Shown piece by piece: positions 17,156-47,430 of a DNA stretch of 49,165 bases. The first letter of the stretch is position 1. The number at the start of each line of letters is the position of its first letter. Made by a program: the position numbers and the translations under genes. Source of the stretch: an uncultured Alphaproteobacteria bacterium (GTDB lineage Bacteria; Pseudomonadota; Alphaproteobacteria; GCA-002720895). The notes below the pieces were generated by a model. The model was not told the DNA's origin. It saw only the letters and a list, made by a program, of their open reading frames with translations, and ran no database searches. The stretch spans positions 1 through 49,165 of the forward strand of contig CAYNCC010000001.1 of NCBI GenBank assembly GCA_964396035.1, read 5' to 3'.

Positions 17156-18436
17156 TTAAATTTTTTTTAAATAAATTATATCATTTCTATCAGGCCCAGT
17201 TGACAAAATTTTTATAGGTACTTTAATCATTCTTTCTAAAGTCTTAATAAATTTTTTTGCTTGCTTTGGTAAATCATTCACATTTTTTACACCTTGGGTA
17301 TTAGATTGCCATCCTTTAATAGTTAAATATTTTGGTTTAACTTTGTTTAATAATGAAAGTGAATTTGGCATTCCTTTTAAAAGCCTTTTACCAATTTGAT
17401 ATGCATAACAAATATTAATTTCTTTAAAATCATCTAAAACATCAATTTTTGTTAATGCTATAGAATTAATATTTCCTATATTAATAGCTTTTTTACATTG
17501 TACACAATCAAACCAACCGCATCGCCTTGGTCGTCCTGTTACACTCCCAAACTCTCTCCCTTTTTTTGCAAGTTCAATGCCTACACGAGATTTAATTTCA
17601 GAAGGAAAAGGTCCTTCACCTACTCTTGTAGTATACGCTTTAACAATACCTAACACATGGCCAATTTTATCTGGATTCATACCTATGCTTGATGCTGCTA
17701 TAATAGGTAAAGTATTACTTGATGTTACATAAGGAAAAGTGCCATGATCAATATCAAGCATCAATCCTTGACCACCTTAAAATAATATTATTTTTTTAAA
17801 AAAATTCTTGTTATTAAAAAATTGCGATAAGTCTATAGAATAAGATAAAAGTCTTCTTCTTATTGATTTTAAAAATTTAAAAGTCTCAGAAAATGAAATA
17901 TTTTTTTTTGAAGAATTTCTTAAAAAAATATTATGAAAATTAATTAAATTTTTTAATCTAATTTTTAATGTATTTAAATCTTCTAAATCGCAAATTCTTA
18001 TACCTCTTCTTGCAACTTTATCCTCATAACAAGGTCCTATACCTCTGCCGGTTGTTCCTATCTTTTCTTTTGATAAAATCTTTTCTCTAATCTGATCAAC
18101 GATAGGGTGAAAAGGTAAAATTACTGAAGCGTTGTTGGCAATTTTTAAATTTTTATTACTAATATTAATTTTTTTTTTCCTAAACAAACTAATTTCTTTA
18201 AACAAATGCATTGGATCAATTACTACATTTGATCCTATAATACAAAGTTTGTTTCTTATTAATCCGGAAGGTAAAATACTTAAAATAAATTTCTTTTTAT
18301 TAATTATAATCGTATGTCCTGCATTGTGACCTCCTTGAAATCTAATAACAACATCAAATTTTTCGGACAAATGATCTACAATCTTTCCTTTTCCTTCGTC
18401 TCCCCACTGAGCGCCAACAATTGTTAAATTATTCAT
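17156..18436 (-). pseudogene. purA: Adenylosuccinate synthase interrupted by a single in-frame TAA
   Basis: ORFs 17777..18436 (GAQWGDEGKGK, GGHNAGHT, GTTGRGIGP) and 17156..17764 (LDIDHGTFPYVTSSNT) are in the same frame. The sequence reads ILF-TAA-GGQGLMLDIDHG against the canonical FEGAQGTLLDIDHG. Confidence 0.85.
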
Positions 18437-18448
18437 CTTATATATTCT

Positions 18449-19591
18449 TTATATTTTTTTTACTTTCCCATCTTTTAAAATGAATTTGCAATTATTTAGT
18501 TTTGCAATTTTAATATCATTTTTTTTATCAAAATTTTGAATAGTAACCCAACCTTTTTTTCTTAATTTATAATTATCTTTATTTAAAAGATCTTTAAAAG
18601 ATATTAAAACTCTTTTATTTTTATTCTTAGATTTTTTGTTAAACTGAAAAAATTGATTTAAATAAAAAGTTGATCCAACTGCATATTCCCCTTTCGAGGT
18701 TAAATATCTACCTCCTCTACAAATTTCCTTTTTTGAATTTATACAAAATATACTAAACGTTACACCTGTGTGATATTCAAACCCTCTTTGTTCAAGTAAA
18801 TCTATGGAAAAATTAAATTTATTAAATTGCTTAAATAAAATATTTGAAATATTAATAAAATTTTGTATTTCTTCTTTTGCTCTATCTCCAAACTTTATCT
18901 TTTTTATTTTTTCAATATTCTTACTTATTGGTCCTGAGGAATTAATTAACTGGCTTAATATTTCAAATAAATTTTTATTAAAATTTTTAATATCCTTAAT
19001 ATCTTTTTTTGCTATTAGTTTTTTTAATTCGTCTTTTTTATTATCCTTAATTTTTAAATCTTCAAAGATTTTTTCAATTATAATGGGCATATTTAAATCT
19101 AAACTAATATCTTTAAATCCAATTTGATAAAGCGATTCTAGACTTAAGATAATTACTTCAATGTCAGCATAAAAATCCTTAGATCCTATAAGTTCTACAC
19201 CTGCCTGTTTAAACTGCCTATCATCTGATAATTTAGGTTTATCAGCCCTAAAAACGTCACCAAAATAACATAATCTAAGAGGTCTAGAAAAATCTGATAA
19301 ACGATCTAATGCAATTCGTGCCAATTGTATTGTTATATCAGGTCTCAAAGATAAAGTTTCTTTTGTTAAAGGATCATTGAATTTAAAAGTTTTATCAGAT
19401 AATTTGTCGTTCTTAATGTCGAATAATGTTTTTTCATATTCTATTAACGGTGGTTCTATTAAATTGTATCCCCAATTATTAAAACTTTTAATTAATTGCT
19501 TACCGCAATCTAATTGAAGATTTGCTTCTTTTGTTAAAATATCTCTAAAACCAGTTGGTAGTAATTTTTTTTTGGAGAATGTTGGATTCAT
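18449..19591 (-). CDS. hisZ: ATP phosphoribosyltransferase regulatory subunit (HisRS paralogue)
   Basis: N-terminal LPTGFRDIL, class II aaRS-like motif 2 (FRADKP...RQFKQAGVELIG) and GGRY. 380 aa and the hisZ-purA adjacency support the call, but a short HisS cannot be fully excluded. Confidence 0.6.
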   Translation of the reverse strand: MNPTFSKKKLLPTGFRDILTKEANLQLDCGKQLIKSFNNWGYNLIEPPLIEYEKTLFDIKNDKLSDKTFKFNDPLTKETLSLRPDITIQLARIALDRLSDFSRPLRLCYFGDVFRADKPKLSDDRQFKQAGVELIGSKDFYADIEVIILSLESLYQIGFKDISLDLNMPIIIEKIFEDLKIKDNKKDELKKLIAKKDIKDIKNFNKNLFEILSQLINSSGPISKNIEKIKKIKFGDRAKEEIQNFINISNILFKQFNKFNFSIDLLEQRGFEYHTGVTFSIFCINSKKEICRGGRYLTSKGEYAVGSTFYLNQFFQFNKKSKNKNKRVLISFKDLLNKDNYKLRKKGWVTIQNFDKKNDIKIAKLNNCKFILKDGKVKKI

Positions 19592-19688
19592 ATATTTTTA
19601 ATTAAAAGGAAGATATTGTGATTAACCACAATATTTCAATTATACAAAAAAAATTAAATAAAAATTTATCATTATTTTACATTGTTAC

Positions 19689-19717
19689 TTGACGAATAAT
19701 ATAATTTGTTATTCAAT
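19689..19717 (+). promoter_or_regulatory. Candidate sigma-70 promoter for the thiC riboswitch transcript
   Basis: TTGACG, 17-nt spacer, TTCAAT. This would put the transcript start at about the first base of riboswitch stem P1. Confidence 0.35.
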
Positions 19718-19724
19718 ATTACTT

Positions 19725-19807
19725 AGTCTCTTAGGGGTGCTATAAAACTAGCTGAGAATATACCCTTAAGACCTGAACTAAGTAATTTTAGCGAAGGAAA
19801 AGGGACT
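19725..19807 (+). promoter_or_regulatory. TPP (THI-box) riboswitch
   Basis: P1 pairs AGUCUCUU with AAGGGACU. Conserved cores are present: AGGGGUGC, GCUGAGA...ACCC and ACCUGA...GCGAAGGAA. It lies directly upstream of thiC. Confidence 0.85.
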
Positions 19808-19834
19808 TTCAAGAATTTCTTTCCTTCATAATAA

Positions 19835-21673
<1,839 letters not shown>

Positions 21674-21687
21674 TTGGTCTAATTTCA

Positions 21688-21996
21688 ATGGGATCTCGCT
21701 TGGAAAAAAAGATTATTAACAACAAAGACTTTAAATCTTTAGTTAAAACAAGGTCTTTTGTTAGTTGGTTTCTATCAACTGTTACTCTTTTAACTTACTT
21801 TTCATTTATCCTTATAGTTGCCTTTTACCCTGAAATACTAGGACTTAAAATATCAGATGAATCAATTATAACAATTGGAATCCCAATAGGAGTTTCAATT
21901 ATACTCTTAGCTTTTGTATCAACAGGAACCTACGTTTACATAGCAAATCGAGAATTTGATCAAAAAGAAAAAATAATACTGAAAAAAAACAAATGA
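21688..21996 (+). CDS. DUF485 (YjcH-like) inner membrane protein
   Basis: 102 aa, two TM helices, ATGA overlap with the downstream actP-type symporter (classical yjcH-actP pairing). Confidence 0.7.
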
Positions 21997-23543
21997 CAAA
22001 TTACCCAGCCATAGCAATGTTTTTTATATTTGTTTTTGGGACTCTTTTAATCACCTTTTGGGCCGCCAAAAAAACTAAATCCCGTTCTCATTTTTATGCT
22101 GCAGGAGGGAAAATTACTAGCCTACAAAACGGATTGGCTATTGCAGGTGACTATATGTCTGCTGCATCCTTTTTAGGTATTTCCGGTCTTGTCTATCTTT
22201 CAGGATACGATGGCCTTATTTATTCAATTGGATTTCTAGTAGGTTGGCCAATTATATTATTTCTACTAGCTGAAAGACTACGTAATTTAGGAGATTATAC
22301 ATTTGCTGATGCTGCATCTCATCGTCTTAATCAAACGCAAATAAGATGCCTTGCTGCAAGTGGCTCTTTAATAACTGTTGCTTTATATCTAATTGCACAG
22401 ATGGTTGGAGCAGGTAAACTGATCCAATTATTATTCGGATTACCATATGAATTTGCTGTAGTTATTGTTGGTGTGCTTATGGTTCTTTATGTAAGTTTTG
22501 GCGGTATGTTAGCAACAACTTGGGTTCAAATTATTAAAGCTATTTTACTTTTATTTGGTGCAACCTTTATAACAATTGCAGTTATGTGGAATACTGGTTT
22601 TAATTTTGAAACGCTATTTCAAAAAGCAATAAATGTTCATCCTAAAAGTTATTCCATTATGAAACCTGGTGGGCTTATATCAGATCCTATTTCTGCAATA
22701 TCTCTAGGTATAGCTTTAATGTTTGGTACAGCAGGACTTCCTCATATTTTGATGCGATTTTTTACAGTCAAGGATGCAAAAGAAGCGCGTAAATCTGTTT
22801 TTTTTGCCACAGGATTTATTGGTTATTTCTATATATTAACCTTCATAATAGGTTTTGGAGCAATCATGTTAATTTCAACAAATCCTGAATTTTTAAACTC
22901 TGATGGAACGTTGATAGGAGGAAATAATATGGCTGCAATACATCTTGCAAATGCTATCGGAGGAGATATGTTTTTAGGTTTTATATCTGCTGTAGCATTT
23001 GCCACAATACTTGCTGTAGTATCAGGACTTACTCTAGCTGGAGCTTCAGCTGTAAGTCACGACCTATATGCTCATGCTTTCAAAAAGAATAAAGTTCAAG
23101 AAAAAGACGAATTATTTGTATCAAAAATTTCAGCTTTTATTCTAGGTTGTATTGCTATTTTCCTTGGGATTATTTTTGAAGAACAAAACGTAGCATTTAT
23201 GGTTGGCCTTGCTTTTGCTGTAGCAGCTAGCGCAAACTTTCCAATCCTATTTCTCTCAATGTATTGGAAGAAATTAACTTCTAAAGGTGCTTTAATAGGA
23301 GGTAGTGCAGGTCTTATTACTGCAACAATATTAGTAATTATAGGCCCAACAGTTTGGGTAGATGTATTTGGTTATGATAAACCGATATTTCCTTATAAGT
23401 ACCCAGCTTTATTTTCAGTAACTACAGCATTTATTATGACGTGGTTATTTTCTATAACAGATAAAAGTAAGTCATCAAAAAAAGAAAAGGCAGCATTTGA
23501 TAGTCAATTTATACAATCACAAATTGGTTTAAAGAAACAATAA
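21993..23543 (+). CDS. actP: Cation/acetate symporter (SSS family)
   Basis: Multi-span SSS-family sequence ([30 protein letters not shown]) and pairing with the DUF485 gene. Confidence 0.8.
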
Positions 23544-23550
23544 AAAAAAA

Positions 23551-23572
23551 GAGCCTTTAATGCTAAAGGCTC
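23551..23572. terminator. Bidirectional intrinsic terminator between the convergent actP and small membrane protein genes
   Basis: GAGCCTTTA-ATGC-TAAAGGCTC (9-bp stem), preceded by A9 and followed by TTTTATT, so a U-tract follows the hairpin on either strand. Confidence 0.8.
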
Positions 23573-23589
23573 TTTTATTCTTACTCTTA

Positions 23590-23639
23590 CACCATCACCG
23601 TGTCGGGATCTAATTCGGGAGGGTGAAAACTTTTTTTTT
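23590..23639. other. GC-rich imperfect hairpin followed by T9
   Basis: CACCATCACCG...CGGGAGGGTG can pair with one mismatch and one bulge, then AAAAC and T9. It lies in the 3' region of the minus-strand small gene. Confidence 0.3.
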
Positions 23640-23640
23640 A

Positions 23641-23877
23641 TTAGCTGATTGATCTTTTATTAAGTAACCAGCAAATAATGGCAAGTGCTACTAGGCCAAC
23701 TACTCCATTATTTCCAAGTTGGTTTAATAACGAAGTTATATTGGCAACAACATCTGTGCCAATGAAAGGAACGGCGCCTGGATAAAGTAAACCTGCTACG
23801 ATACCAAATGCAATCAGCATAAGGCCTACTTCGGTCAGCGCTCCTATCCATCTTTTTGCTACGTTTAAGGCATTCAT
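23641..23877 (-). CDS. Small (78 aa) two-helix membrane protein of unknown function
   Basis: Two hydrophobic helices (IGALTEVGLMLIAFGIVAGLLY and VVGLVALAIICWLL). GGGAGG Shine-Dalgarno 5 nt before the ATG. About 40 percent GC by hand count, against about 18 percent in the first 60 nt of neighbouring glmM. Confidence 0.6.
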   Translation of the reverse strand: MNALNVAKRWIGALTEVGLMLIAFGIVAGLLYPGAVPFIGTDVVANITSLLNQLGNNGVVGLVALAIICWLLNKRSIS

Positions 23878-23898
23878 GATTGCCTCCCTTTCTTTGGT

Positions 23899-23920
23899 TA
23901 GTAATTATACATAATTACTA
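23899..23920. promoter_or_regulatory. Perfect 10+10 bp palindrome overlapping a TATAAT box upstream of the small membrane protein gene
   Basis: TAGTAATTAT-AC-ATAATTACTA. On the minus strand the right arm contains TATAAT (plus-strand 23904-23909), about 27 nt upstream of the ATG. Confidence 0.4.
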
Positions 23921-24041
23921 CATATTGTAGTATTTATTTATCATACACTTAATATAGTATATAGAAAGAAAAAAAATATGATATATATACTACATGTTGT
24001 AAAATTACAACATACTTATTTTATATATTTTAAAAAAAATA

Positions 24042-25373
24042 TTAATTATTTCTTAACTTTTTTTTTAATGAAGTAAAAATATCTTTAGATAAACTATTGA
24101 TTCTACTAATTATTCTACTCTCTAAAAATATTCTTATTAATGGCTCTGTTCCAGATGCTCTAATCAAAACTTTTCCTTTATTACCTAATTTTTTATTGTA
24201 TAAATTCATTATTTTCTTTAACTCTATATCCTTAATTTTGTCCGAATCCTTTAATTTTATGTTTTTTTGAATTTGATAATAAGGTTTATATAAATTAAAA
24301 ATTTTACTAGCTTTATCTTTTAATTCAGAAATTATGGATAATAATTGTAACGCTACAAGAATTCCATCTCCAGAAGAACTATATTTTCTTAAAATTATAT
24401 GGCCTGATTGTTCTCCACCAATAACACAGTTTTTCTTTAACATTAGTTGATAAACAAATTTGTCTCCTACTGGTGATCGATAAAAATTTAAGCCTAAGTT
24501 TTTTACAAAATTTTCCAAACCCATATTTGACATTATTGTGCCAACAACCCCATTTATTTTCATTATTTTTTTTTCTTTATAGAATTTAACTAAACATGCG
24601 AGAATTTTATCTCCGTCAATTATTTTTCCTTTTTCATCGCAACATATAAGCCTATCCCCATCTCCATCAAAAGAAATTCCAAAATCTGCTGAATATTTTT
24701 TTACAGCTTTTATTATATTTTGTGGATACAAAGAACCGCATCTATAATTTATATTAGTTCCATTTGGTTTGTTATTAATCAATATGGCTTTGATTTTAAA
24801 TTTTGTAAAAATATCTTTTGCAAGTTTATATGTTGAACCATTTGCACAGTCCACTACCACCTTTTTATTATTTATTCTTTTAATTTTTAAAGTAGAAATA
24901 ACTTTCGTTTTATAATAGTTTTCCCTTTGTTTTATATTTATGACTTTACCTGACTTTAAATTTATTATTTTATTTTTATTAAATTTAAAAAATTTATTTT
25001 CTATTTTTTTCTCATTTTTATCAGATAATTTTTCTCCATTTTCATTAAAAAATTTAATTCCATTAAACTGGTATGTATTGTGAGATGCCGATATTATTAT
25101 CCCTAAATTACAATTTAATCTTTTAGTTAAATAAGATAAAGCGGGAGTAGAGATTAAACCTAATAAATATACATGAGCTCCTTGATTTTTTAAGCTTTCA
25201 ACAAATATTTTTTCAATTATTGGACTAGATTTTCTTGTATCTCTTCCTAAAGCAATTTTTTTATTTTTACCATTATCTAATATAGCTTTTGATAAAATAT
25301 TTAATGAATTTCTTTTAAAAATATCATTAGTTGCTAATTCTCTTATACCATCAGTTCCAAAAAGTTTTTTCAT
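24042..25373 (-). CDS. glmM: Phosphoglucosamine mutase
   Basis: MKKLFGTDGIRE N-terminus, active-site SASHN, FDGDGDR metal loop, GGEQSGH. ftsH-folP-glmM synteny. Confidence 0.92.
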   Translation of the reverse strand: MKKLFGTDGIRELATNDIFKRNSLNILSKAILDNGKNKKIALGRDTRKSSPIIEKIFVESLKNQGAHVYLLGLISTPALSYLTKRLNCNLGIIISASHNTYQFNGIKFFNENGEKLSDKNEKKIENKFFKFNKNKIINLKSGKVINIKQRENYYKTKVISTLKIKRINNKKVVVDCANGSTYKLAKDIFTKFKIKAILINNKPNGTNINYRCGSLYPQNIIKAVKKYSADFGISFDGDGDRLICCDEKGKIIDGDKILACLVKFYKEKKIMKINGVVGTIMSNMGLENFVKNLGLNFYRSPVGDKFVYQLMLKKNCVIGGEQSGHIILRKYSSSGDGILVALQLLSIISELKDKASKIFNLYKPYYQIQKNIKLKDSDKIKDIELKKIMNLYNKKLGNKGKVLIRASGTEPLIRIFLESRIISRINSLSKDIFTSLKKKLRNN

Positions 25374-25385
25374 ACAATTCTTTTA

Positions 25386-26207
25386 TTAATGACGTAATGC
25401 CTGCCAAACTAATTTGGCTTGCATTGCTTCTTTTACATCATGAACTCTAATAATTTCAACACCTTGTTCCATAACAAATTGGTTTGCCGCAATTGTACCT
25501 GGTAATCTATCTATAGGAGTCTCATTCTTACTTAAATCTGATATTAATCTTTTTCTTGAGAGTCCAATGAGAATATTACATCCTAATTTATGAAACATTG
25601 GTAAATTTTTTAAAATTTGTATATTATGTTTGTAATTTTTACCAAAACCTATTCCTGGATCAATAATAATCCTTTTCTTTGCTATTCCATTTGCTTTACA
25701 CTTTTGTATTTGTTTTTTTAAAAAATTATAAACATCTTTTGGAGCATTTTGATATTTTGGATTTTTTTGCATAGTTTCTGGAGTACCTTGCATATGCATT
25801 AAAACTAGAATACATTTAGAATTCTTAATTACATTAATACTTTCTGGATCATGATTAAGTCCAGAAACATCATTTATAATTTCAACCCCTTCATTTAAAA
25901 CAAAAGACATTGTAGATGAATTTCTAGTGTCTATAGAAATTCTTATATTTTTTCTTTTTAAACCTCTGATAATAGGTATTAATCTTTATATTTCTACTTC
26001 AGGTTTAACAAGCTTTGCTCCTGGTCTAGTAGATTCTGCACCAATATCAATAATATCTGCTCCCAATTGGTTCATCTTCATTGCAGCTATAATAGCTTTT
26101 GATGGTTTTAAAAAAAATTTTCCTCCATCAGAAAAACTATCAGGAGTTATATTTAGAATACCCATTATAGCAGGTGTCTTAAATCCTAAAGGTGGCTTTT
26201 TAATCAA
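25386..26207 (-). pseudogene. folP: Dihydropteroate synthase interrupted by a single in-frame TAA
   Basis: ORFs 25986..26207 (GILNITPDSFSDGG, GAESTRPGA) and 25386..25910 (INDVSG, DPGIGFGK) share one frame. The read-through sequence is PEVEI-TAA-RLIPIIRGLKRKNIRISIDTRNSSTMSF, which contains the conserved SIDT motif. Confidence 0.85.
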
Positions 26208-26221
26208 AATTAGAATGCCTC

Positions 26222-33792: not shown

Positions 33793-34488
33793 TTATTTCC
33801 TTGTGACGCGACTAACAAATTCTTGGGCAAAAGTTTCTAAGCGAAGAGAATAATTGTCCAAAACACTAGATATTTTATTATAAGCAATAACTGCTGGTAT
33901 AGCAGCTATTGAACCTAATGCAGTTGCAAACAAAGCTTCTGCTATTCCAGGAGCGACAACTGCTAAACTAGTGTTTTTAGTTATTCCTATTGCCTGAAAA
34001 CTATTCATTATTCCCCAAACAGTTCCAAATAAACCAACAAATGGTGCAGCCGAACCTAAAGAAGCAAGAAATATCATATTTTTTTCTAACTTTGTCATTT
34101 CATTATTAATTGAAGAAATCAGTACATTGTTTAATCTTGATTCCATCTGATCTTTTAATTTTGTTCCTCGAATTCTCAGCCATTCAATCATAGCTTTATT
34201 AAATACTGCAATCATAGCATGATCGTTTTGCCCTTCAGTTTTTGAATATAATTCTTCTACTGAATTAGTTGACCAAAATAAATCTTCAAATTTCTTAGTT
34301 ACAGTTGTAATTTGTTTAATTTTCTTTGCCTTATTGATAATAATAGTCCAGCTCCATATAGAAGAAAAAAACAATCCAGCTATAACCATTTTTACAATGG
34401 GGTCTGCTCTTAAGAACAAAGATAAAATAGATAGATCGTATGTCCCATTTTGAACTAAATTAACAGCATCTACAGCTTGGTTTTCCAT
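33793..34488 (-). CDS. tolQ: Tol-Pal system protein TolQ (MotA/ExbB family)
   Basis: Three TM helices and the conserved LASLGSAAPFVGLFGTVWGIM segment. Confidence 0.9.
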   Translation of the reverse strand: MENQAVDAVNLVQNGTYDLSILSLFLRADPIVKMVIAGLFFSSIWSWTIIINKAKKIKQITTVTKKFEDLFWSTNSVEELYSKTEGQNDHAMIAVFNKAMIEWLRIRGTKLKDQMESRLNNVLISSINNEMTKLEKNMIFLASLGSAAPFVGLFGTVWGIMNSFQAIGITKNTSLAVVAPGIAEALFATALGSIAAIPAVIAYNKISSVLDNYSLRLETFAQEFVSRVTRK

Positions 34489-35652: not shown

Positions 35653-36459
35653 CTAGGACCAATTGCTTTGAAGTTTTCCGTCAACTATTATAGGCCTTAT
35701 TGATTTTGCCATGCCATTTCTATCATCAGTTTCCACAAAAACTCCTGATAGAGTTGCTTCTCCTGAAGCTGGGGATATACCTCCCACTGGTATTTTTCTT
35801 CTAAATCTCTCAAGAGATTTCTTTTTATCCATACCAATTATTGAATCATAATCTCCACACATACCTAAGTCAGTAATATAAGCAGTTCCATTATCTAAAA
35901 TACGAGCATCTGCTGTAGGAACATGTGTATGTGTTCCAACAATCAAGCTTACTTTTCCATCGAATTCAAATCCCATCGCCATTTTTTCACTTGTTGCTTC
36001 ACAATGAATATCAATTACTGATGCATGAATATCCGAGCCTAACAAATTACTACTAATTATTTTCTTTGTAGAGTCAAAAGGATCATCAAGAGGATTCATG
36101 AAAACTCTACCCATTACATTAATAACCATTATTTTTTTTTGTTTTTTCTCATAAATACCATATCCATTTCCTGGGGTATCATTAGGATAATTGGCAGGTC
36201 TTAATAATCTTTTTTCTTTATCAATAAAATTTAGAACATCTCTATTATCAAAAATATGATTCCCTCCAGTGATTACATCGATTCCAGAATTAAATAAATC
36301 ATCACATATTGTTTTTGTAATGCCTCTTCCATGTGAGGCATTTTCTCCATTAACTAAAATAAAATCAGGATTTAAATTCTTTTTAAAATATGGAAGTTTT
36401 TTTATTAAGGCATCTCTTCCTGATCTACCAAAAATATCACCAAAAAAAAGGATTTTCAT
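35653..36459 (-). CDS. YmdB-like metallophosphoesterase (TIGR00282 type)
   Basis: MKILFFGDIFGRSGR, VNGENASHGRGIT, GNHIFD and GTHTHV metal-binding motifs. Confidence 0.85.
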   Translation of the reverse strand: MKILFFGDIFGRSGRDALIKKLPYFKKNLNPDFILVNGENASHGRGITKTICDDLFNSGIDVITGGNHIFDNRDVLNFIDKEKRLLRPANYPNDTPGNGYGIYEKKQKKIMVINVMGRVFMNPLDDPFDSTKKIISSNLLGSDIHASVIDIHCEATSEKMAMGFEFDGKVSLIVGTHTHVPTADARILDNGTAYITDLGMCGDYDSIIGMDKKKSLERFRRKIPVGGISPASGEATLSGVFVETDDRNGMAKSIRPIIVDGKLQSNWS

Positions 36460-36803
36460 TTATTAAGAGATTGGAAATGATTAATCAAATTATGTATTTT
36501 ATCTTTAATCAAAGAATTTTTTTCCGAATTTTTTTGTTTTAGGTCTTCAAGATCTTTTTTATAGTTTTTTCCATATGGATTATCTATTTTAGCGCTCTCC
36601 TTTTGTATCTTTTCTAATTCTTCACATAACAAAATACCAGCTAAAACTAACAATCTTGGATGATCGACATTTTTTACTTTAAGTGATAAATTACTTACTC
36701 TTTCACTAAATTGTTTTGAAAGTTGTAGAACATATTTTTCTTTGCTTTTATCACAAGTGATGTCATAAAATCTTCCATGAACATTTATTCTAAGATTGGA
36801 CAT
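36456..36803 (-). CDS. zapA: Cell division protein ZapA-like
   Basis: 115 aa. INVHGRFYDITCD N-terminus and a C-terminal coiled coil. Divergent from tkt, as in many Alphaproteobacteria. Confidence 0.6.
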   Translation of the reverse strand: MSNLRINVHGRFYDITCDKSKEKYVLQLSKQFSERVSNLSLKVKNVDHPRLLVLAGILLCEELEKIQKESAKIDNPYGKNYKKDLEDLKQKNSEKNSLIKDKIHNLINHFQSLNK

Positions 36804-36976
36804 TATTTGTTTTTTTTAAATAAAATTTTTAAATTTATACATATATTTAAAGTATATATGTAAAGTATATTTTTTTATTTTATAATTAATAGCATAAATT
36901 AGGTTTGTAAAATAATAAGAATCAAATTGTGAAAGTCAAAAAAATTTTAAAATTAAACCATCTGAATTTAAATCTT

Positions 36977-38944: not shown

Positions 38945-38945
38945 A

Positions 38946-39947
38946 ATGATAAATATAGCAATTAATGGATTTGGAAGAATTGGTAGATTGTTTTTAAGGG
39001 CCTTAAGTGAAAGTAAATTTAAAGAAAATATCAAAGTAAAAATAATCAATGACTTAGCTGATTTGGATTCAAACGTTCATTTGTTTAAATATGACTCAAT
39101 TCATGGTGTTTATAATAGAAAAATTAAAAAAACGAAAAATTCTTTTAATATTGGATATGGTTTTATTGAAACTATATCAGAAAAAGATCCTTTAAAACTG
39201 CCATGGAAAAAAAACAAAATAGACATTGTTATTGAATGCACAGGTATTTTAACATCAAAAAAAGATTCTTTAAAACATATAAAAGCAGGCGCAAAAAAAG
39301 TTATTATATCAGCACCGTCCGATAATCCAGATATTACTGTGGTTTATGGAGTGAATCATAATAGAATTAAAAATGATCATAAAATAATTTCAAATGCATC
39401 GTGCACTACAAACTGTTTAGCGCCAATAGCACATATTTTAAATGAAAAAATTGGTATTAAATACGGTCATATGACAACTATTCATTCTTTTACAGGAGAT
39501 CAAAATATTGTTGATACGTATCACAAAAGTGATTTGAGAAGAGCTAGATCGGCATCATTATCATTAATCCCAACAAAAACAGGAGCGGCCAAATCTATTG
39601 GATTGGTAATACCGTCATTAAATAAAAAACTTGATGGAACAGCAATAAGAGTGCCCACTGCAAATGTAAGTTTAATTGATTTTGTTTTTAATTCTATAAA
39701 CGAAACTTCCGCCAATGAAATTAATAAAATTTGTAAAAACGCAGCAAAAACAAATTTAAAAAATATTTTATCAATTACAAACGAACCCTTAGTTTCTATA
39801 GATTTTAATCATTCACCATTTAGTTCTAATTTTGATACTACACAAACAAAAGTTATTGACAAAAAATTATGCAGAATATTATCTTGGTATGATAATGAAT
39901 GGGGTTTTGCAAATAGATTAGTAGATTTAACAAAATATATTTCTTAA
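38946..39947 (+). CDS. gap: Glyceraldehyde-3-phosphate dehydrogenase
   Basis: INGFGRIGR, active-site SNASCTTNCLAP, WYDNEWGF. Confidence 0.95.
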   Translation: MINIAINGFGRIGRLFLRALSESKFKENIKVKIINDLADLDSNVHLFKYDSIHGVYNRKIKKTKNSFNIGYGFIETISEKDPLKLPWKKNKIDIVIECTGILTSKKDSLKHIKAGAKKVIISAPSDNPDITVVYGVNHNRIKNDHKIISNASCTTNCLAPIAHILNEKIGIKYGHMTTIHSFTGDQNIVDTYHKSDLRRARSASLSLIPTKTGAAKSIGLVIPSLNKKLDGTAIRVPTANVSLIDFVFNSINETSANEINKICKNAAKTNLKNILSITNEPLVSIDFNHSPFSSNFDTTQTKVIDKKLCRILSWYDNEWGFANRLVDLTKYIS

Positions 39948-39963
39948 TTTTTTTTAAAGAAAA

Positions 39964-40380
39964 ATGTCAAACTTAAAACAATTTAAAGTTATTGTTGTTC
40001 ATAATTATAATCACGCATTTTACGCAATGAAAGCTGCTGCGAAAATTAAAAAAAAAATATATATTTTAAGTCCTGAGAATGCAGCTTCATATATGGGGCC
40101 ACTTTTTTTTAAAAAATTATTAAAAAAAGCAGAAAAGTCATTTCCTAGAGTTAAGTATTGTGAGATACTAAACTGCAATAATGATATTGGTTTAGCTTTA
40201 GAAGCAATTCAATGTGGTATAAAAAGTATTGAAATTAAATGTAATCAATTAGTTTTAGAAAAAATAAAAAATATTTGTAAAAAAAAAGGTGTGAGTGTAA
40301 ATAATATTAACAAAAAGAAATTAGACTTAGAATATGTTGAAAATGTTTATGACGAATGCTTAAAGTGGTTTGATAATTAA
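39964..40380 (+). CDS. Hypothetical protein resembling the N-terminal half of class II fructose-bisphosphate aldolase, with catalytic residues replaced
   Basis: By eye: HNYNHAFYAMKAAAKIKKKIYILSPENAASYMG against FNxNNxE..AI..AAE...PVIL..SEGA..YMG. VKYCEILNCNNDIGLALEAIQCGIKSIEI against VPVALHLDHG......AI.AGFTSVMID. KKKGVSVNNIN against HGVSVEAELG. Only 138 aa. Confidence 0.4.
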   Translation: MSNLKQFKVIVVHNYNHAFYAMKAAAKIKKKIYILSPENAASYMGPLFFKKLLKKAEKSFPRVKYCEILNCNNDIGLALEAIQCGIKSIEIKCNQLVLEKIKNICKKKGVSVNNINKKKLDLEYVENVYDECLKWFDN

Positions 40381-40383
40381 TAT

Positions 40384-41403
40384 ATGGAAAATTTAGAAAA
40401 TATTGCTGAAAAGATTGTCGAAAATGGTAAAGGAATATTGGCAGCAGACGAAAGCACAAACACTATAAAAAAAAGATTTGATAGTATTAACATTGAATCT
40501 ACAGAAATGTCTAGATGTAATTATAGAGAAACTTTATTCTCAACTTCTGATATTTCTAATTTTATATCCGGAGTTATTTTATTTGAAGAAACTTTTTTTC
40601 AAAAAAATAAAAGCGAAGAATCTTTAAAAGAAAAACTAGAAAATGTTAATTGTTATCCTGGTATAAAAATAGATCAAGGACTTGAGCCTCTAAATAAAGA
40701 TGAAATTGAAACTTATACAAAAGGAATAGAAACATTAGATGAACGTTTAAAACCTTTTACTGATAATGGAGCTAAGTTTACAAAATGGAGAGCAGTTATT
40801 AATATCGGTAAAAATATTCCTACAAAAAAATGTTTGGAAAGAAATTCTTCATTGTTAGCTAAATATGCATCAATAAGTCAAAAAAATAATTTAGTGCCAA
40901 TTGTTGAACCAGAAGTAATTATGGATGGCAATCATAGTTTAGAAAAATGTTATGAAGTAACAAAAAAAACATTAAGCATGGTTTTTGACTCATTAGAAAT
41001 ACAAAATGTAAATTTAAAAGGAATTTTACTTAAACCTAATATGGTTGTTCCAGGTAACAAAAGTAATGAAAAATTAGATGTTAAACAATCTGCAGAAAAA
41101 ACTTTACTTTGTCTTCGCGATTGTGTGCCAGAAAAAGTTCCAGGAATTGTATTTTTATCAGGTGGGTTAAGTAGTATTAATGCAACAATGATATTAAATG
41201 AAATTAATAAATTAAATGATTGCCCATGGAAACTATCTTTTTCTTACGGTAGAGCATTACAAGAGGATGCTCTTAAGATATGGGCAGGAAAAAAAGAAAA
41301 TAAAGATAAAGCTCAAAGGATTTTTTTACATAGAGCGAAAATGAATTCATTAGCATGTCAAGGCAAATGGGATTCTATGTTAGAAGATGATTTTAAACTT
41401 TAA
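40384..41403 (+). CDS. fba: Fructose-bisphosphate aldolase, class I
   Basis: GILAADES, Schiff-base region LLKPNMV, FLSGG and SFSYGRALQ motifs. Confidence 0.9.
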   Translation: MENLENIAEKIVENGKGILAADESTNTIKKRFDSINIESTEMSRCNYRETLFSTSDISNFISGVILFEETFFQKNKSEESLKEKLENVNCYPGIKIDQGLEPLNKDEIETYTKGIETLDERLKPFTDNGAKFTKWRAVINIGKNIPTKKCLERNSSLLAKYASISQKNNLVPIVEPEVIMDGNHSLEKCYEVTKKTLSMVFDSLEIQNVNLKGILLKPNMVVPGNKSNEKLDVKQSAEKTLLCLRDCVPEKVPGIVFLSGGLSSINATMILNEINKLNDCPWKLSFSYGRALQEDALKIWAGKKENKDKAQRIFLHRAKMNSLACQGKWDSMLEDDFKL

Positions 41404-41410
41404 ATAATAA

Positions 41411-42073
41411 ATGAATTATCTTTTTCAAAAGAAAAAAAAATATTTATATTTAATAACTCCACCTAATCTTCTTAAAAAAGAATTACTATTAGACGAATTC
41501 TTAATAGTTTTAAACAAAGTTTTAAAAACTAAAAAAATTAAGTTTTTACAATTAAGATTAAAAAATAAAAGTGAAAAAAAAATTATAAAAATATCAAAGA
41601 AAATTAATGTTCTTTGTAAGAAATATAATACTTTATTTTTTATTAATGATTATGTTAGTGAAAAAATATTAAAATTTTGTGATGGGGTTCATTTAGGCCA
41701 AAAAGATTTATCCAAAAAAAAAATTAATTTAATTCATAAAAAAAAAAAATACTTATGAATAAAATGTAATAATTCAGAAAAATTTGTAAAAAAGGTAATG
41801 CGCTATAAGCCAAATTATATTTCATTTGGATCTTTTTTTAATACAGAAACAAAAAAAATTAAATTCTTAGCAAAAATTAAAAATATAAATTGGTTTAAAA
41901 AAAATTTTTCTATACCATGTGCTGCTATTGGAGGCATAAATATAAAAAACTGTAAAAAAATTTTAAATACAGAATGTGATTTACTTGCTATATGTTCAGG
42001 AATTTGGAATTTTGAAGAAGGCCCTATTAAAGCTGTGAATAAATTTTACAAAATTTTAAAAGAAAAAAAATGA
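41411..42073 (+). pseudogene. thiE: Thiamine-phosphate synthase interrupted by a single in-frame TGA
   Basis: ORFs 41411..41758 (FLQLRLKNKS, DGVHLGQKD) and 41798..42073 (YISFGSFFNTETKK, AIGGI) are in the same frame. The sequence reads KKYL-TGA-IKCNN where ThiE has ILGVSAH. Confidence 0.8.
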
Positions 42074-42636
42074 AAATATCAGCAAATGAAATAAAAATAG
42101 GGAATATTTTAGAAATAAACAATAAATTATGGAAAGTCTTAAAAACTGAGGTTACTAAACCAGGAAAAGGAGGTGCTTACATTCAAGTAGAATTAAAAGA
42201 AATTACTGAAGGAACAAAAAAAAACGAAAGGTTTAGATCAGAGGAAAATTTGGAGAAAGCTTATTTGGAACAAAGAAAATATCAGTTTCTTTATAAAAAA
42301 GAAGACAATTATGTTTTTATGGATAAGTCAAATTATGAACAAATAAGTCTTAATGAAAAAAATATTTTAGAAAATTTTTTACCCTATTTAAATAATAATA
42401 TAGAAGTAATATTGGAACTTAAAGATGAAACGCCAATAAACATAATACTTCCAGAAACAGTAATTTTATTAGTAAAAAGTGCAGAGGCTGTTACAAAAGG
42501 TCAAACAGCAACTTCTGGTTTAAAACCTGCAATTTTAGAAAACGGTGTTAAAGTAATGGTTCCATTGCACATAGAAGAGCAAATGAAAATAGTAGTAAAA
42601 ACATCAGATAACTCATATGTTGAGAAACTGAAATAA
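42070..42636 (+). CDS. efp: Elongation factor P
   Basis: KPGKGGAYIQVELK loop. 188 aa. Confidence 0.93.
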   Translation: MKISANEIKIGNILEINNKLWKVLKTEVTKPGKGGAYIQVELKEITEGTKKNERFRSEENLEKAYLEQRKYQFLYKKEDNYVFMDKSNYEQISLNEKNILENFLPYLNNNIEVILELKDETPINIILPETVILLVKSAEAVTKGQTATSGLKPAILENGVKVMVPLHIEEQMKIVVKTSDNSYVEKLK

Positions 42637-42649
42637 ATCTTGTTTTAAT

Positions 42650-43450
42650 ATGACTATAAAAAGCCCAATATTAAATGTAATGACAAAAGCAGCTTACAAG
42701 GCTGGGAATAAATTACTTAAAGATTTTAGAGAAATTGAAAATTTGCAAGTATCAAAAAAAGGAATTGGTGATTTTGTAACGTCGGCAGATTTAAATTCAG
42801 AAGAAACTATAATCAAAGAATTAAAAAAAGCTCATCCTGGAATTGAGATTGTTTGTGAAGAAAATAATCCAGAATTTGAAGAAGGGAAACAAGAAAAAAG
42901 ATTTATTGTTGATCCATTAGATGGAACTCTAAATTTTCTTCACGGTCTTCCTCATTTCTCAATTTCTATTGCTTTGATGCATAAAGAAGAAATAGTATCA
43001 GGAATAATTTATGATCCTATTAAAGATGAATTGTTTTGGGCTGAAAAAGGAATTGGTGCTTTTCTTAATAACTCGACGAGACTTAGAGTTTCAGGTAGAA
43101 GTGATTTAAAAAAATCATTAGTTTCTACAGGAATTCCTTGGAGAGGTATGGAAAATACACATAAAAACTTTTTGAAAATACTTCAAAATGCAATGCAAAA
43201 TTGTTCTGGTGTTAGAAGATTTGGCTCAGCAGCATTAGATTTAGCTTATATAGCAGCTGGTAGATATGATGCTTTTTGGGAATTTGGATTAAAAATATGG
43301 GATATTGCTGCTGGATTGCTTTTGGTAAAAGAAGCTGGAGGTTTTGTAGAAGATATATACAATAAAGATAATGTCTTATATACAGGAAATATTTTAGCTT
43401 GTAATAATAATCTAATTAATGAATTTAAAAATAATATAATATTAAAATAA
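42650..43450 (+). CDS. suhB: Inositol monophosphatase family protein
   Basis: DPLDGTLNFLHG and WDIAAG motifs. Confidence 0.88.
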   Translation: MTIKSPILNVMTKAAYKAGNKLLKDFREIENLQVSKKGIGDFVTSADLNSEETIIKELKKAHPGIEIVCEENNPEFEEGKQEKRFIVDPLDGTLNFLHGLPHFSISIALMHKEEIVSGIIYDPIKDELFWAEKGIGAFLNNSTRLRVSGRSDLKKSLVSTGIPWRGMENTHKNFLKILQNAMQNCSGVRRFGSAALDLAYIAAGRYDAFWEFGLKIWDIAAGLLLVKEAGGFVEDIYNKDNVLYTGNILACNNNLINEFKNNIILK

Positions 43451-43455
43451 AAATA

Positions 43456-44094
43456 ATGTTTAAAAAAAAAATAATAGTATTAACGTTTTTTAGTTTCTTT
43501 TTAATAATTAATAAAAATTGCTATTCCATAGATCCTGTTGAAATAGGCAAGCCATATAAAAAAGATGTCGAAATAAATTATTCAGTGCTTGAAAAAATAA
43601 AGGAAAATAAAGAAAAAATAATTTCTATTAAGAAAGATATAAGAACAAAAATAAAAAAAAATTATTTAGAAACAAAGAATGAAAAAGAAATTAAAAATAA
43701 AAATAAAGAAAATAAAATAAAAAAAAATTCTAAAAATAAATCATATGCTTATATTGATGACAATAAATATATTGATAATCTTAATAAAATCTCAATATTA
43801 TTTGATGAAAATTCAGCAAATATAAAAGAATCAGAATTAAATAAGATAAAAAATTTTTTAAATAAACAAGAAAATAAAGATAAATTATATTTAAAAATTA
43901 TGGCTTATGCTAAATCAAAGAATAATAATGATAATGATAGTTCTAGAAGAGTTTCTCTAGATAGGGCTATTAATATTAGATCAAGTATTATTGATGCAGG
44001 AGTTCCACCAGAAAACTTAATTGTAAAAGCTTTAGGAAATTTAAAGAATAAAAATAGTAGTAATAAAGCTGATATTGAAATTATAGAAAAATAA
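43456..44094 (+). CDS. Secreted protein with C-terminal OmpA/MotB-like domain
   Basis: Signal peptide and K/N-rich linker. C-terminus ILFDENSANIKESELNKI...SSRRVSLDRAINIRSSII fits the OmpA-like peptidoglycan-binding pattern. Confidence 0.5.
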   Translation: MFKKKIIVLTFFSFFLIINKNCYSIDPVEIGKPYKKDVEINYSVLEKIKENKEKIISIKKDIRTKIKKNYLETKNEKEIKNKNKENKIKKNSKNKSYAYIDDNKYIDNLNKISILFDENSANIKESELNKIKNFLNKQENKDKLYLKIMAYAKSKNNNDNDSSRRVSLDRAINIRSSIIDAGVPPENLIVKALGNLKNKNSSNKADIEIIEK

Positions 44095-44140
44095 TAAAAA
44101 ATCATTACAAATTTTGTAAAAAAATATATATTTTATCATT

Positions 44141-44440
44141 ATGAAAAAAAATAAACATCCAGATTACCATGAAATAGAAGTTGTAATGACTGATGGTACT
44201 AAATTTAATACTAAATCAACCTGGGGTAAAAAAGGAGATGTATTAAATTTAGATATCGATCCAAAGACACACCCTGCATGGAGTGGTGGCGAGCAAAAAT
44301 TAGTTGATAGTCAAGGGCAAATATCAAAATTTTCTAAAAAATTTAAAAATTACAAAAAATCTACTTCAGAAAATGAAATTTCTAACGAAAAAAAAAGTTC
44401 CTCAAATAATGAAGAAAATAAATCAAAAGATCCTAAGTGA
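44141..44440 (+). CDS. rpmE: 50S ribosomal protein L31 with a low-complexity C-terminal extension
   Basis: [19 protein letters not shown]...HPAWSGG...[10 protein letters not shown] matches L31. An extra ~25 residues rich in S/N/E/K follow. The TGA stop overlaps the GTG of the next gene. Confidence 0.85.
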
Positions 44441-45414
44441 AAGTTGTAGAAATTAATAAATTTGGTGGTCCAGAAGTTCTTAAAATTGGATCAAGACCAA
44501 TACCTAACCCTAAAAAGAATGAAGTTTTAATTAAAGTTAAAGCTGCTGGAGTAAATAGACCTGACATCCTTCAAAGAGAAGGTAATTATCCTCCTCCTAA
44601 AGGAGCTTCGGATATTTTAGGTCTTGAAATAGCAGGTGAGGTTGTGAAAATAAATAAAAGATCCTCAAACATTAAAATTGGTGATAAAGTTTGTGCGCTT
44701 GTAACTGGTGGAGGATATTCAGAATATTGTGTAGCTCCCTATGGTCAGTGTCTACCTATACCTAAAGGATTAAATTTTGAAGAAGCTGCATCATTGCCTG
44801 AAACATTTTTTACAATCTGGTTTAATTTATTTGTTCAAAATAAAATAAAAAAAAATCAAAAAATATTAATTCATGGCGGAACAAGTGGTATCGGAACTAC
44901 AGCAATACAAGTTGTAAAAAATTATGGTTTAGAAATTTTTACTACTACAAGAAATGAAAAAAACATTAAAAAATGTAAAAAGCTTGGAGTAAAAAACACT
45001 ATTAATGTGAGAAAAATGGATTTTGAAAAGTTTATAAAAAAAAAGACCAATGGTGAAGGTGTAGATTTAATAATTGATATAGTTGGAGGAACATATGTCC
45101 AAAAAAATATTAATATATTAAAAAGAAATGGAACGCTAATTAACCTTGGTTGGCTAACAGGATCTAATGTAAAAATAAATTTAATTATGGTAATGTTAAA
45201 AAGGTTAAAAATAACAGGATCAACATTAAGAGTTGGATCTTTAAAAGAGAAAGAGGAAATTGCAAAAGGATTAAAGAAATATATTTGGCCACTAATAGAA
45301 AAAAAAAAAATTAAACATATAGTTTTTAAAATTTTTAAAATTTAAAAAGTAAGAGATGAAAATTTTTATATGGATATGGGAATGAATTTTGTTAAATTAG
45401 TATTAAGAATTTAA
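44437..45414 (+). pseudogene. NAD(P)H:quinone oxidoreductase (MDR/zeta-crystallin family) interrupted by an in-frame TAA 23 codons before the natural end
   Basis: GVNRPDILQREGNYPPP, GGTSGIGT. After the TAA at 45343-45345 the same frame continues as KVRDENFYMDMGMNFVKLVLRI, matching the family C-terminus (..AH..M.SG.HIGKIVL). Confidence 0.7.
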
Positions 45415-45456
45415 TAAAATTTTGAATATATATCATAAAATTATTTTGGATTTATA

Positions 45457-46038
45457 ATGGCAAAAATTTTGATGCCAAAAGCTACAGCTATTTGGCTATT
45501 AGAAAATACTGGTTTAACTTTTAAACAAATAGCTGACTTTTGTAATTTACACACTCTTGAAGTGCAAGGAATTGCTGATGGTGTAGTTGCAGGAAAAATG
45601 CCTGGTATAAACCCTATTACAGAAAAAATCTTAACTGAGAAAGAAATTAAAAAATGTGAAGAAAATCCAAAATTAAAACTTTCAATAAATAAAAGTGATT
45701 TACCTAAACCAAAAAAGATCTCTAAAGGTGCAAAATATACTCCTATCGCAAAAAGACATGAACGTCCATCTGCAATCATTTGGCTTATTAAACAGTATCC
45801 AAATATTACAGATGCTGAAATATGCAAACTTTTAAGAACCACAAAAAATACCGTTGAATCTATAAGAAATAAGAGTCATTGGAATATTGAGAATATTATT
45901 TCAAAAGATCCTCTAAAATTAGGTCTATGTAATGAAAAAGATATATTAAAACTTACTGAAAAATATGGTAATAACAAAGATGAGGAAATTGAAGAACAAA
46001 AACAAGATAGTTCCTCAAAAGATAGTATTGTAGAATAA
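45457..46038 (+). CDS. DUF1013-family protein (alphaproteobacterial cell-cycle associated regulator family)
   Basis: LMPKATAIWLLENTGLTFKQIADFCNLHTLEVQGIADG, KYTPIAKRHERPSAIIWL and HWN motifs typical of DUF1013. Confidence 0.7.
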   Translation: MAKILMPKATAIWLLENTGLTFKQIADFCNLHTLEVQGIADGVVAGKMPGINPITEKILTEKEIKKCEENPKLKLSINKSDLPKPKKISKGAKYTPIAKRHERPSAIIWLIKQYPNITDAEICKLLRTTKNTVESIRNKSHWNIENIISKDPLKLGLCNEKDILKLTEKYGNNKDEEIEEQKQDSSSKDSIVE

Positions 46039-46048
46039 TTTAAATAAA

Positions 46049-46531
46049 ATGGCTGATACAAAGGTTGCAATAATTATGGGTAGTGAGTCTGATGCCGATG
46101 AAATGAAAAAAGCATCAGATATTTTAGATGAACTAAAGATTAAGAGTGAGACTTTAGTTATATCTGCCCATAGAGCTCCTGATAAATTAAGAGATTATTG
46201 TATAAGTGCAGAAAAAAAAGGTATTAAAGTATTTATTGCAGGGGCTGGAATGGCAGCTGCATTGCCTGGAGTCATTTCTGCTTATACTCATCTTCCAGTT
46301 CTAGGCGTTCCTATAGAAAGCAAAAGTTTAAAGGGTATGGACAGTTTGTTATCAATTGTTCAAATGCCACCGGGAATACCTGTAGGTACATTGGGAATTG
46401 GAGGTTCAGTTAATGCTGGATTATTAGCAGCATCCATTATTGCATTAGAAGACAAGGAAGTATCTGAAAGACTAAAAGATTTTAGAAAAAAACAAAGTGA
46501 AATAAAAGGCTACAAGCCTTTATCTAAATAA
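46049..46531 (+). CDS. purE: 5-(carboxyamino)imidazole ribonucleotide mutase
   Basis: VAIIMGSESD, SAHRAPD, GAGMAAALPGV. Confidence 0.92.
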   Translation: MADTKVAIIMGSESDADEMKKASDILDELKIKSETLVISAHRAPDKLRDYCISAEKKGIKVFIAGAGMAAALPGVISAYTHLPVLGVPIESKSLKGMDSLLSIVQMPPGIPVGTLGIGGSVNAGLLAASIIALEDKEVSERLKDFRKKQSEIKGYKPLSK

Positions 46532-46535
46532 AATC

Positions 46536-47132
46536 TTATAAAAATTTAGAAAATTTTTCTTTTAAATTTTCTTTTAAAACTGAAATAATGTTCATGTTCA
46601 TTATTGATTTTTCCAAAAACATATTAGTTTTATCTAATTTATTAGATTTATCATTTAGCCAAATTAAAACAGCACTACTATATATTGCAGCTAATATAGC
46701 TCTTTTTGTATAAAAATTAATATCTTTTGATTTATCTCCAATTAAATTCCAAGTAAAATCAACAATTTTATAAACTAATTTAGATGATAATATTTGATTT
46801 GAAGGTTTCGCTAAATAATTTAAACTTTTTTTAATAGCGTCTTTATTTTTATTTAAAATTTCAAATCTTATTTTTAAAGAGGTGAGAATTTTTAACCTTA
46901 AACTTTCTTTAATTCTCTTTTTGTTATAAAGAATTGAAACTTTTTCATTAATAAATGAATTAAAAAATAAGATTAAATCATCTAATTCATTTGGAAAACA
47001 ATCGTTAATAATCTTAGAATTACGTTTAAATTTCTTTTTTGTTTTATTAAAGGAATTTATATTCCATCCTTCTTTTTTAGTAATAGCTAAAAAAGATTTA
47101 AAAAATCTTGATTGCATTGAATTATTTACCAT
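46536..47132 (-). CDS. COQ9-like / rpsU-divergently transcribed protein
   Basis: ~200-aa helical protein divergent from rpsU, the arrangement that defines this alphaproteobacterial family. The sequence assignment itself is weak. Confidence 0.45.
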   Translation of the reverse strand: MVNNSMQSRFFKSFLAITKKEGWNINSFNKTKKKFKRNSKIINDCFPNELDDLILFFNSFINEKVSILYNKKRIKESLRLKILTSLKIRFEILNKNKDAIKKSLNYLAKPSNQILSSKLVYKIVDFTWNLIGDKSKDINFYTKRAILAAIYSSAVLIWLNDKSNKLDKTNMFLEKSIMNMNIISVLKENLKEKFSKFL

Positions 47133-47241
47133 TTTGTTAAAAAATAAATTGAATTTTTTTATTTTATTTATATTCTTTAGATCTAAAAGTATAGAATAAA
47201 AAACTTGTAATAAACATATAATTTTATTTGAGGAAAAAAAA

Positions 47242-47430
47242 ATAGTACAAATCTTTTTAAGAGATAATAATTTAGAAGCTGCCCTTCGTATACTTAAGAA
47301 AAAAATGCAACAAGAAGGCTTGTTTAAAGAAATGAAAATAAGAAGACATTATGAAAAACCTTCTGTTAAAAAAAAAAGAATAGCCTCTGAAGCATTGAGA
47401 AAAAAGAAAAAATTCAATAGATACTTTTAA
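47242..47430 (+). CDS. rpsU: 30S ribosomal protein S21 with no canonical start codon (ATA at the expected initiator position)
   Basis: Translation (I)VQIFLRDNNLEAALRILKKKMQQEGLFKEMKIRRHYEKPSVKKKRIASEALRKKKKFNRYF matches alphaproteobacterial S21 (MVQIFVRDNN...). GAGGA lies 7 nt upstream of the ATA. There is no ATG, GTG or TTG in frame back to the stop at 47197. This gene is absent from the ORF track. Confidence 0.8.
   Translation: MVQIFLRDNNLEAALRILKKKMQQEGLFKEMKIRRHYEKPSVKKKRIASEALRKKKKFNRYF

Follow-up and report, generated by a model that had tools for sequence, protein, structure and literature searches.

Transversion patches around four in-frame stop codons, and a conserved ATA at the start of rpsU, in a contig of a low-GC marine alphaproteobacterium

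Substitution errors induced by homopolymers on Illumina instruments have been described (cited in PMC11140927), and in two-colour Illumina chemistry each of C and T is labelled with a single dye, A with both dyes and G with neither (PMC11140927). Here we analysed a 49,165-bp contig of an uncultured alphaproteobacterium (CAYNCC010000001.1, the whole stretch being called the window below), in which purA, folP, thiE and the gene of a quinone oxidoreductase (Qor) each contain an in-frame stop codon, and in which rpsU, encoding ribosomal protein bS21, begins with ATA. The changes around the four stops resemble the described post-homopolymer error in being substitutions without indels, in forming patches 3′ of the two longest homopolymers, in recurring at the same tracts, in being absent from independent assemblies and in bearing no sign of selection; they differ from it in that two of the four patches (purA and folP) do not lie beside a long homopolymer and in that the folP pair occurs in two assemblies. 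Artefacts of 8-oxoguanine offer a second comparison, since G>T and C>A make up 13 of the 24 changes and three of the four that create a stop, but the remaining 11 belong to the classes A>T, T>A, T>G and G>C, and such artefacts are scattered singletons, whereas patches of 13–80 bp after poly-A were observed here. The pseudogenes of genome-reducing symbionts, and the rescue by poly-A slippage in Buchnera or Blochmannia, likewise involve AT-rich genomes and lesions near poly-A in housekeeping genes; unlike them, the window carries substitutions downstream of the tract and not length changes within it, and these are private to it, the relatives being intact.

For the start of rpsU, two other systems are comparable. 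The infC gene of Escherichia coli starts with AUU, a non-AUG initiator that serves regulation, and this start is sensitive to initiation factor 3 (IF3); like rpsU of the window, it has a conserved near-cognate initiator on a gene for a component of the initiation machinery, though the codon is AUA here. In Flavobacteriia, bS21 autoregulates its synthesis via the Shine-Dalgarno (SD) sequence of rpsU (PMC9976891), and the window shares with that system an SD of rpsU that is conserved although the genome is mostly poor in SDs, while it belongs to a Pelagibacteraceae-like alphaproteobacterium. The joint explanation that we favour, at a probability of roughly 85%, is that the stops of purA, thiE and Qor, and very probably that of folP, are short-read error patches, and that the ATA of rpsU is a probable real start.

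The interrupted genes and their patches

The window was compared base by base with near-identical sister contigs (99.2–99.9% nucleotide identity), which were obtained from many marine metagenomes, among them Tara, the Station ALOHA-tagged LUOE20-1 and others, and whose coverage tags are about 2.6–4x. A change was called private when present in the window's assembly only. The nearest GTDB species representative, an uncultured alphaproteobacterial bin (L041), has 94.4% nucleotide identity with the window; the scan of genome contigs gave a single relative at 95% amino-acid identity, and the metagenome scan gave mostly relatives of about 58% identity, which served as outgroups only. Contig L031 (ena:ERZ25070185 ctg114041_2x_l), with 51 gaps and many split genes over 9.5 kb, was left out of the comparisons; to judge by its name, it comes from long reads of the same population assembled at 2x.

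A sequence-only reading of the window had reported TAA in purA, folP and Qor, TGA in thiE and ATA as the first codon of rpsU, in frames otherwise open and free of indels. These observations were confirmed: the Pfam matches span each lesion, and no indels were detected against short-read sister contigs of at least 99% identity, gaps being limited to the N-runs of scaffolds and to the error-rich or divergent contigs L031, L037, L038 and L040. The ancestral codons deduced for purA (GAA) and thiE (GGA) were correct, and those of Qor and folP were GAA and AAA, respectively. The same reading held that each gene carries one lesion, with no further decay and with its motifs kept, which proved mistaken, every stop lying inside a cluster of further private changes. 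It had also named sense codons in sister genomes as the result that would speak against a real pattern, and such codons were found at all four stops. Judged by the gene lengths called on sister contigs, the rest of the window's genes are unbroken.

The purA gene of adenylosuccinate synthetase (17156–18436, minus strand) has 426 codons, with PF00709 matching residues 6–421, and is interrupted by TAA at 17777–17779. At this codon GAA was observed in two independent contigs (L001/L014 and L015), within an open reading frame (ORF) of 426 amino acids (aa), and Glu was found at the position in nine of nine related proteins. The purA patch covers 47 bp (17772–17818) and consists of four private transversions, at 17772, 17779, 17790 and 17818, which lead to I207F, R216I, E220* and A222G and convert the motif EGAQG into *GGQG; the nine related proteins all show FINNKNFFKKRILFEGAQG, where the window shows FFNNKNFFKKIILF*GGQG. 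The patch sits in a 30-nt tract of pure A/T with T7A7 (17793–17806).

The folP gene of dihydropteroate synthase (25386–26207, minus strand; 273 codons, PF00809 at residues 15–256) has TAA at 25986–25988. The codon is AAA in L013, whose 273-aa gene is intact, and all eight full-length members of the protein cluster read EVEIKRLKPII, with Lys at the position of the stop. Only a mini-patch was detected in this gene (25978–25988), composed of two plus-strand T>A changes 10 bp apart that give K77I and K74* and interrupt two short T-runs. This pair is common to the window and to one Station ALOHA scaffold, ENA scaffold_1346 (L001), and the resulting FolP fragments of 174 aa and 73 aa are recorded only from the NCBI contig and from that ENA scaffold.

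The thiE gene of thiamine-phosphate synthase (41411–42073, plus strand; 220 codons, PF02581) is interrupted by TGA at 41756–41758. All six sister contigs have GGA there, with the frame intact through the codon, and the complete gene calls in L002 and L003 are 220 aa in length. Four private transversions (G>T, T>A, C>A and C>A) are packed into 13 bp (41756–41768), resulting in G116*, I117I, T118K and H120N, so that GITCH becomes *IKCN.

The gene of Qor, a member of the zinc-ADH family (44437–45414, plus strand; 325 codons, PF08240, PF00107 and PF13602), has TAA at 45343–45345, where GAA was observed in 10 contigs and in the species of 94% identity, L041; the gene is intact at 325 aa in L020, L030 and L071. 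Its patch is the largest, with 14 private transversions in 80 bp (45317–45397). They yield P294H, V296V, C297F, I299I, E303* and S308E, the last of these from two changes in one codon, and further H309N, I310F, K314M, I316M, H317N, G319V and I321L. Throughout the patch, the 9–11 contigs available, including L041, are unanimous against the window. In a collection of 15 billion proteins, the broken fragments of PurA, ThiE and Qor have this NCBI contig as their only source. Exact look-ups gave no match for the 219-aa PurA fragment (among encoding contigs), for a 408-aa porin and for a 547-aa protein.

Every one of the 24 clustered changes is a transversion, with C>A accounting for 8, G>T for 5, A>T and T>A for 4 each, T>G for 2 and G>C for 1. 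The window-private changes outside the clusters comprise 12 transitions versus 4 transversions, and 180 transitions and 74 transversions separate the window from L041; the clusters differ from both sets by Fisher's exact test (p = 3e-7 versus the window-private rest and p = 2e-12 versus L041). By coding effect, the 24 changes are 4 stop, 17 missense and 3 silent, where random transversions in the window's genes would yield 8% stop, 78% missense and 14% silent. About 1.9 stops are expected from 24 random transversions, and the probability of four or more is 0.12. The split matches that of unselected random transversions, several of the observed changes fall on conserved residues, and the four broken genes among about 53 are far above the expectation for an error-free genome.

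Probable base-calling errors and the alternatives

The longest homopolymers in the contig are 12 bases in length and exactly two in number, namely A12 at 41738–41749 and A12 at 45299–45310, both on the plus strand. The thiE patch starts 6 nt downstream of the former, and the Qor patch starts 7 nt downstream of the latter and extends for 80 nt. Damage at the same tracts was also observed elsewhere: the thiE products P0033, P0036 and P0038 of other assemblies are frameshifted at the same poly-A, and at the homologous Qor A12 of a more distant lineage L078 has a 1-base deletion (position 1018), with L075, another LUOE20-1 scaffold, having G>T, A>T, a deletion and C>A. A second, transversion-only trio truncates Qor in L075.

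Scaffold_1346 has private changes of its own, five T-for-A changes in a 636-aa ABC-transporter accessory protein, of which four are missense and one is silent and none creates a stop. They correspond to window positions 12083–12105, 12983 and 13013 (L061/L001), at which the window, and not the scaffold, matches the nine outgroups wherever those cover. This scaffold bears the same error class as the window.

The stops of purA, thiE and Qor are miscall patches private to one assembly and absent from the genome of the organism, and the stop of folP is very probably the same kind of error. Independent assemblies lack the variants of purA, thiE and Qor, and the folP variants are missing from all except one scaffold; a tie to homopolymer context with recurrence elsewhere was found for thiE and Qor; and the spectrum and coding effects are like those of miscalls. 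The pattern across five genes is no biological phenomenon, being an assembly-quality problem in the public record. We attribute the stops to base-calling rather than to DNA damage because the changes are transversions only, occur as patches and in two cases come right after the longest homopolymers. Miscalls are unselected and therefore land on conserved residues. The substitution errors proposed in the sequence-only reading are thus upheld for purA, thiE, Qor and probably folP, without the oxidative signature attached to them there, which would account for 13 of the 24 changes only.

As to how the errors might have arisen, low-quality short reads at thinly covered places would have carried substitutions into the contig. 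The reads would derive from Illumina chemistry, and with two-colour calling a miscall in one channel would exchange A and C, G and T, A and T or G and C, that is, every transversion and no transition; expressed as channel flips, 15 of the 24 changes lie in one channel, 9 lie in the other and none requires both. Signal might degrade past long homopolymers, and the two poly-A sites may have been covered by reads of a single orientation only. For the Station ALOHA metagenomes, MiSeq and NextSeq 500 instruments were used (PMC9732441), and the LUOE20-1 tag together with that paper (PMC9732441) would tie the sample SAMN05991682 to this NextSeq/MiSeq series; a literature search for the accession of this sample gave no hit. 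The window forms its own haplotype with natural-looking variants, and it was probably derived from one LUOE20-1 sample or a similar data set because 11 of its 16 exclusive alleles are shared with scaffolds from that sample. A shared data set of the LUOE20-1 type would also account for the folP pair in scaffold_1346.

Several points weigh against this explanation. The purA and folP patches are not beside a 12-base homopolymer, the nearest context being a T7A7 tract and short T-runs, respectively, and both 11-base homopolymers of the window (20207 and 28166) are without nearby errors. We infer the platform, depth and base quality of the contig's reads, and thin coverage at interior sites of a 49-kb contig is odd. 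The presence of the folP pair in a second assembly implies either shared reads or a real allele.

One alternative takes the stops as real null alleles of very recent origin, carried by a single cell or a small subpopulation (damaged, dying or mutator) under AT-biased mutation. We regard it as improbable. It could draw on the occurrence of K74* and K77I of folP in both the window and scaffold_1346, on changes that run mostly toward A/T and on the distinct haplotype of the window, but three clusters occur in a single contig, with as many as 11 others lacking them, and a complete lack of transitions is unlike the natural spectrum of the same data. Two clusters directly after the two longest homopolymers, and the similar damage that other assemblies show at these tracts, speak against it as well, and a joint loss of purA, thiE, folP and Qor, together with hits on catalytic motifs, would be implausible for a viable streamlined cell. 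Pseudogenisation by relaxed selection, which would leave inherited lesions or a transition-rich, indel-containing spectrum, is not supported either, the lesions being private to this contig apart from the folP pair found in one scaffold, with neither transitions nor indels among them. Recent nonsense alleles had been one of the proposals of the earlier reading; the private patches set this aside for purA, thiE and Qor, and only for folP, whose pair a second assembly shares, does a rare real allele keep some plausibility.

Highly improbable, in our view, are real mutations by a process linked to poly-A, for example stalled replication with subsequent error-prone (translesion) synthesis over a few dozen bases. 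Some error-prone polymerases are known to produce transversion-rich multi-nucleotide mutations, and two of the patches begin just 3′ of A12 tracts and run one way, as such a process might produce. It would, however, need independent events at the same tracts that are never detectable in any population consensus, the frameshifted versions that other assemblies have there suggest a technical hot spot, and the purA and folP patches would be left unexplained.

Tolerance of the stops through read-through or suppression, the last of the earlier proposals, or through site-specific recoding or an altered code, is hardly credible: the frames do run full-length past each stop, but a recoding site would be conserved and the closest relatives have ordinary sense codons (including GGA in six of six sisters at the thiE TGA, where programmed read-through or selenocysteine would call for a conserved stop with a signal), the flanking conserved residues are destroyed too, and TAA and TGA end ORFs throughout the window, among them those of adjacent genes, which overlap as ATGA/GTGA at 21993, 42070 and 44437. 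No tRNA genes were detected in the window, and no recoding element was found there with Rfam, whose sole match was a thiamine pyrophosphate (TPP) riboswitch. The in-frame stops are not shared by close relatives, they affect only four of about 53 genes and no codon has been dropped as a terminator, and the earlier judgement that a global code change is unlikely holds.

Four further candidates were rejected. An artificial introduction of the lesions into the window is contradicted by the broken fragments, which are on record from the NCBI contig. Pure oxidative damage (8-oxoG) leaves the clustering unexplained. A diversity-generating retroelement or other targeted hypermutation does not fit changes that are not adenine-specific, and no reverse transcriptase was found among the Pfam-annotated genes of the sister contigs and the window. 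Natural recombination from a divergent allele was set against short stretches in which the window is 10–25% diverged from scaffold_1346 (window 1–280 and 4936–5209, and the scaffold end at 33909–33993), located in an AcrB-like gene, a porin gene and exbB. In these truly divergent stretches transitions are present and the changes are mostly silent at third positions, the opposite of the lesion patches. By our own count, the 1–280 stretch has 15 transitions and 22 transversions against scaffold_1346, with 24 silent and 13 missense changes, and the natural divergent patches of the contig overall have about 40% transitions and about 65% silent changes. The diverged stretches resemble what variation among natural strains, recombination or chimeric joining of strains at contig ends would give, and they provide an internal natural control.

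Broken genes were also noted in assemblies of the related lineage, in L075 (655–704 and 1008–1036), L078 (1018), L079 (230) and L077 (3381–3406), with Qor broken by transversion-only patches or one-base poly-A deletions and UbiB interrupted by an N-run. Among assemblies of this AT-rich group, false pseudogenes appear to be common.

The first codon of rpsU

The rpsU gene (47242–47430, plus strand) has 62 codons with ATA as the first, and PF01165 matches residues 3–55. An SD sequence, GAGGA (47230–47234, plus strand), lies 7 nt upstream of the ATA, and no ATG, GTG or TTG was found in the window from the ATA back to the TAA at 47197. The earlier view of this ATA as a recent G-to-A lesion does not agree with its conservation in relatives: the codon is identical in scaffold L030, in L041 and in L071–L080, ten contigs from a lineage further removed, so that it is kept across at least three lineages, each time with GAGGA or AAGGAG as SD 7 nt upstream. 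In the ten contigs the upstream sequence is otherwise unrelated to that of the window and reads AAGGAG, 7 nt, then ATA (around position 2938); an in-frame TAA stands five codons upstream with only AGG AGA AAT AAA between, and the ATA is the sole near-cognate start after this TAA. Between the lineages, codons 2–21 differ by 7 silent and 3 conservative changes (our own count) and are therefore translated. By anti-SD pairing the gene ranks seventh among the 52 genes of the window, about 40 of which are without a recognisable SD.

The locus combines, as expected of a non-AUG start, a near-cognate codon that is kept at a conserved N-terminus, a well-spaced SD, the lack of a canonical in-frame alternative and selected N-terminal codons. 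We consider it likely that the ATA is a real AUA initiation codon in this clade, from which translation probably initiates with formylmethionine. Gene calls for related bS21 proteins are either 41 aa in length, from Met22, or 66–96 aa, as an extended reading of the form '...K-IVQIF'; one 41-aa cluster was seen on 47 contigs, and among the closest relatives (≥80% identity) MVQIF was found in one only.

A decayed start, with the product made from Met22 (41 aa) or not at all and bS21 being dispensable or otherwise supplied, is rather unlikely. Gene callers do predict the 41-aa product in many relatives, and some bacterial lineages are without bS21, but codons 2–21 are under purifying selection between lineages, the SD spacing is kept relative to the ATA and not to Met22, and the Pfam S21 domain begins at residue 3.

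In E. coli, assembly-defective or immature 30S subunits are more permissive for AUA initiation (PMC6868393). By analogy with infC and with the rpsU autoregulation of Flavobacteria, the AUA start, the SD and the stringency exerted by IF3 and the 30S subunit might establish feedback, with subunits that are immature or short of bS21 favouring its synthesis, a proposal that is tentative as a whole, and any regulatory role of the AUA is speculation. In the literature collection that was searched, no paper on an AUA start of rpsU or in SAR11 was found.

Host, neighbouring features and meaning

The window has a GC content of 27% and densely packed genes, and its Pfam matches correspond to an alphaproteobacterial gene set (TrcR, COQ9, UbiB, TolB-Pal, FtsH-FolP-GlmM, and ThiC behind a TPP riboswitch). 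One related bS21 is labelled 'Pelagibacteraceae bacterium' by its source, and the host of the contig is like Pelagibacteraceae (SAR11-like), a low-GC marine bacterium. The TPP riboswitch (19723–19816, plus strand; Rfam RF00059, 63.6 bits) lies upstream of thiC (19856–21673). Surface SAR11 strains have been reported to be without thiC, and its presence in the window may mark a different, deeper-water clade. Two ORFs, of 78 aa (23641–23877, minus strand) and 138 aa (39964–40380, plus strand), have no Pfam match and are intact in all sister contigs; the 78-aa ORF carries one of the strongest SDs of the window, and a strong SD was also observed upstream of the porin gene (4841).

Patches made up solely of transversions, above all those directly downstream of long poly-A/T runs in AT-rich genomes, are a signature by which miscalls can be recognised, and comparison with sister contigs can expose them without reads. 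Such patches can yield false pseudogenes in metagenome-assembled genomes, which would inflate pseudogene counts and distort metabolic predictions; affected here are purine, folate and thiamine synthesis, traits that are much discussed for SAR11. At rpsU, the 41-aa stub or the 66–96-aa extended ORF produced by standard gene callers would be a systematic annotation error. The conserved ATA of rpsU is probably the one real feature of the five, and it may offer a modest, testable lead on how translation is controlled in a streamlined genome with few SDs.

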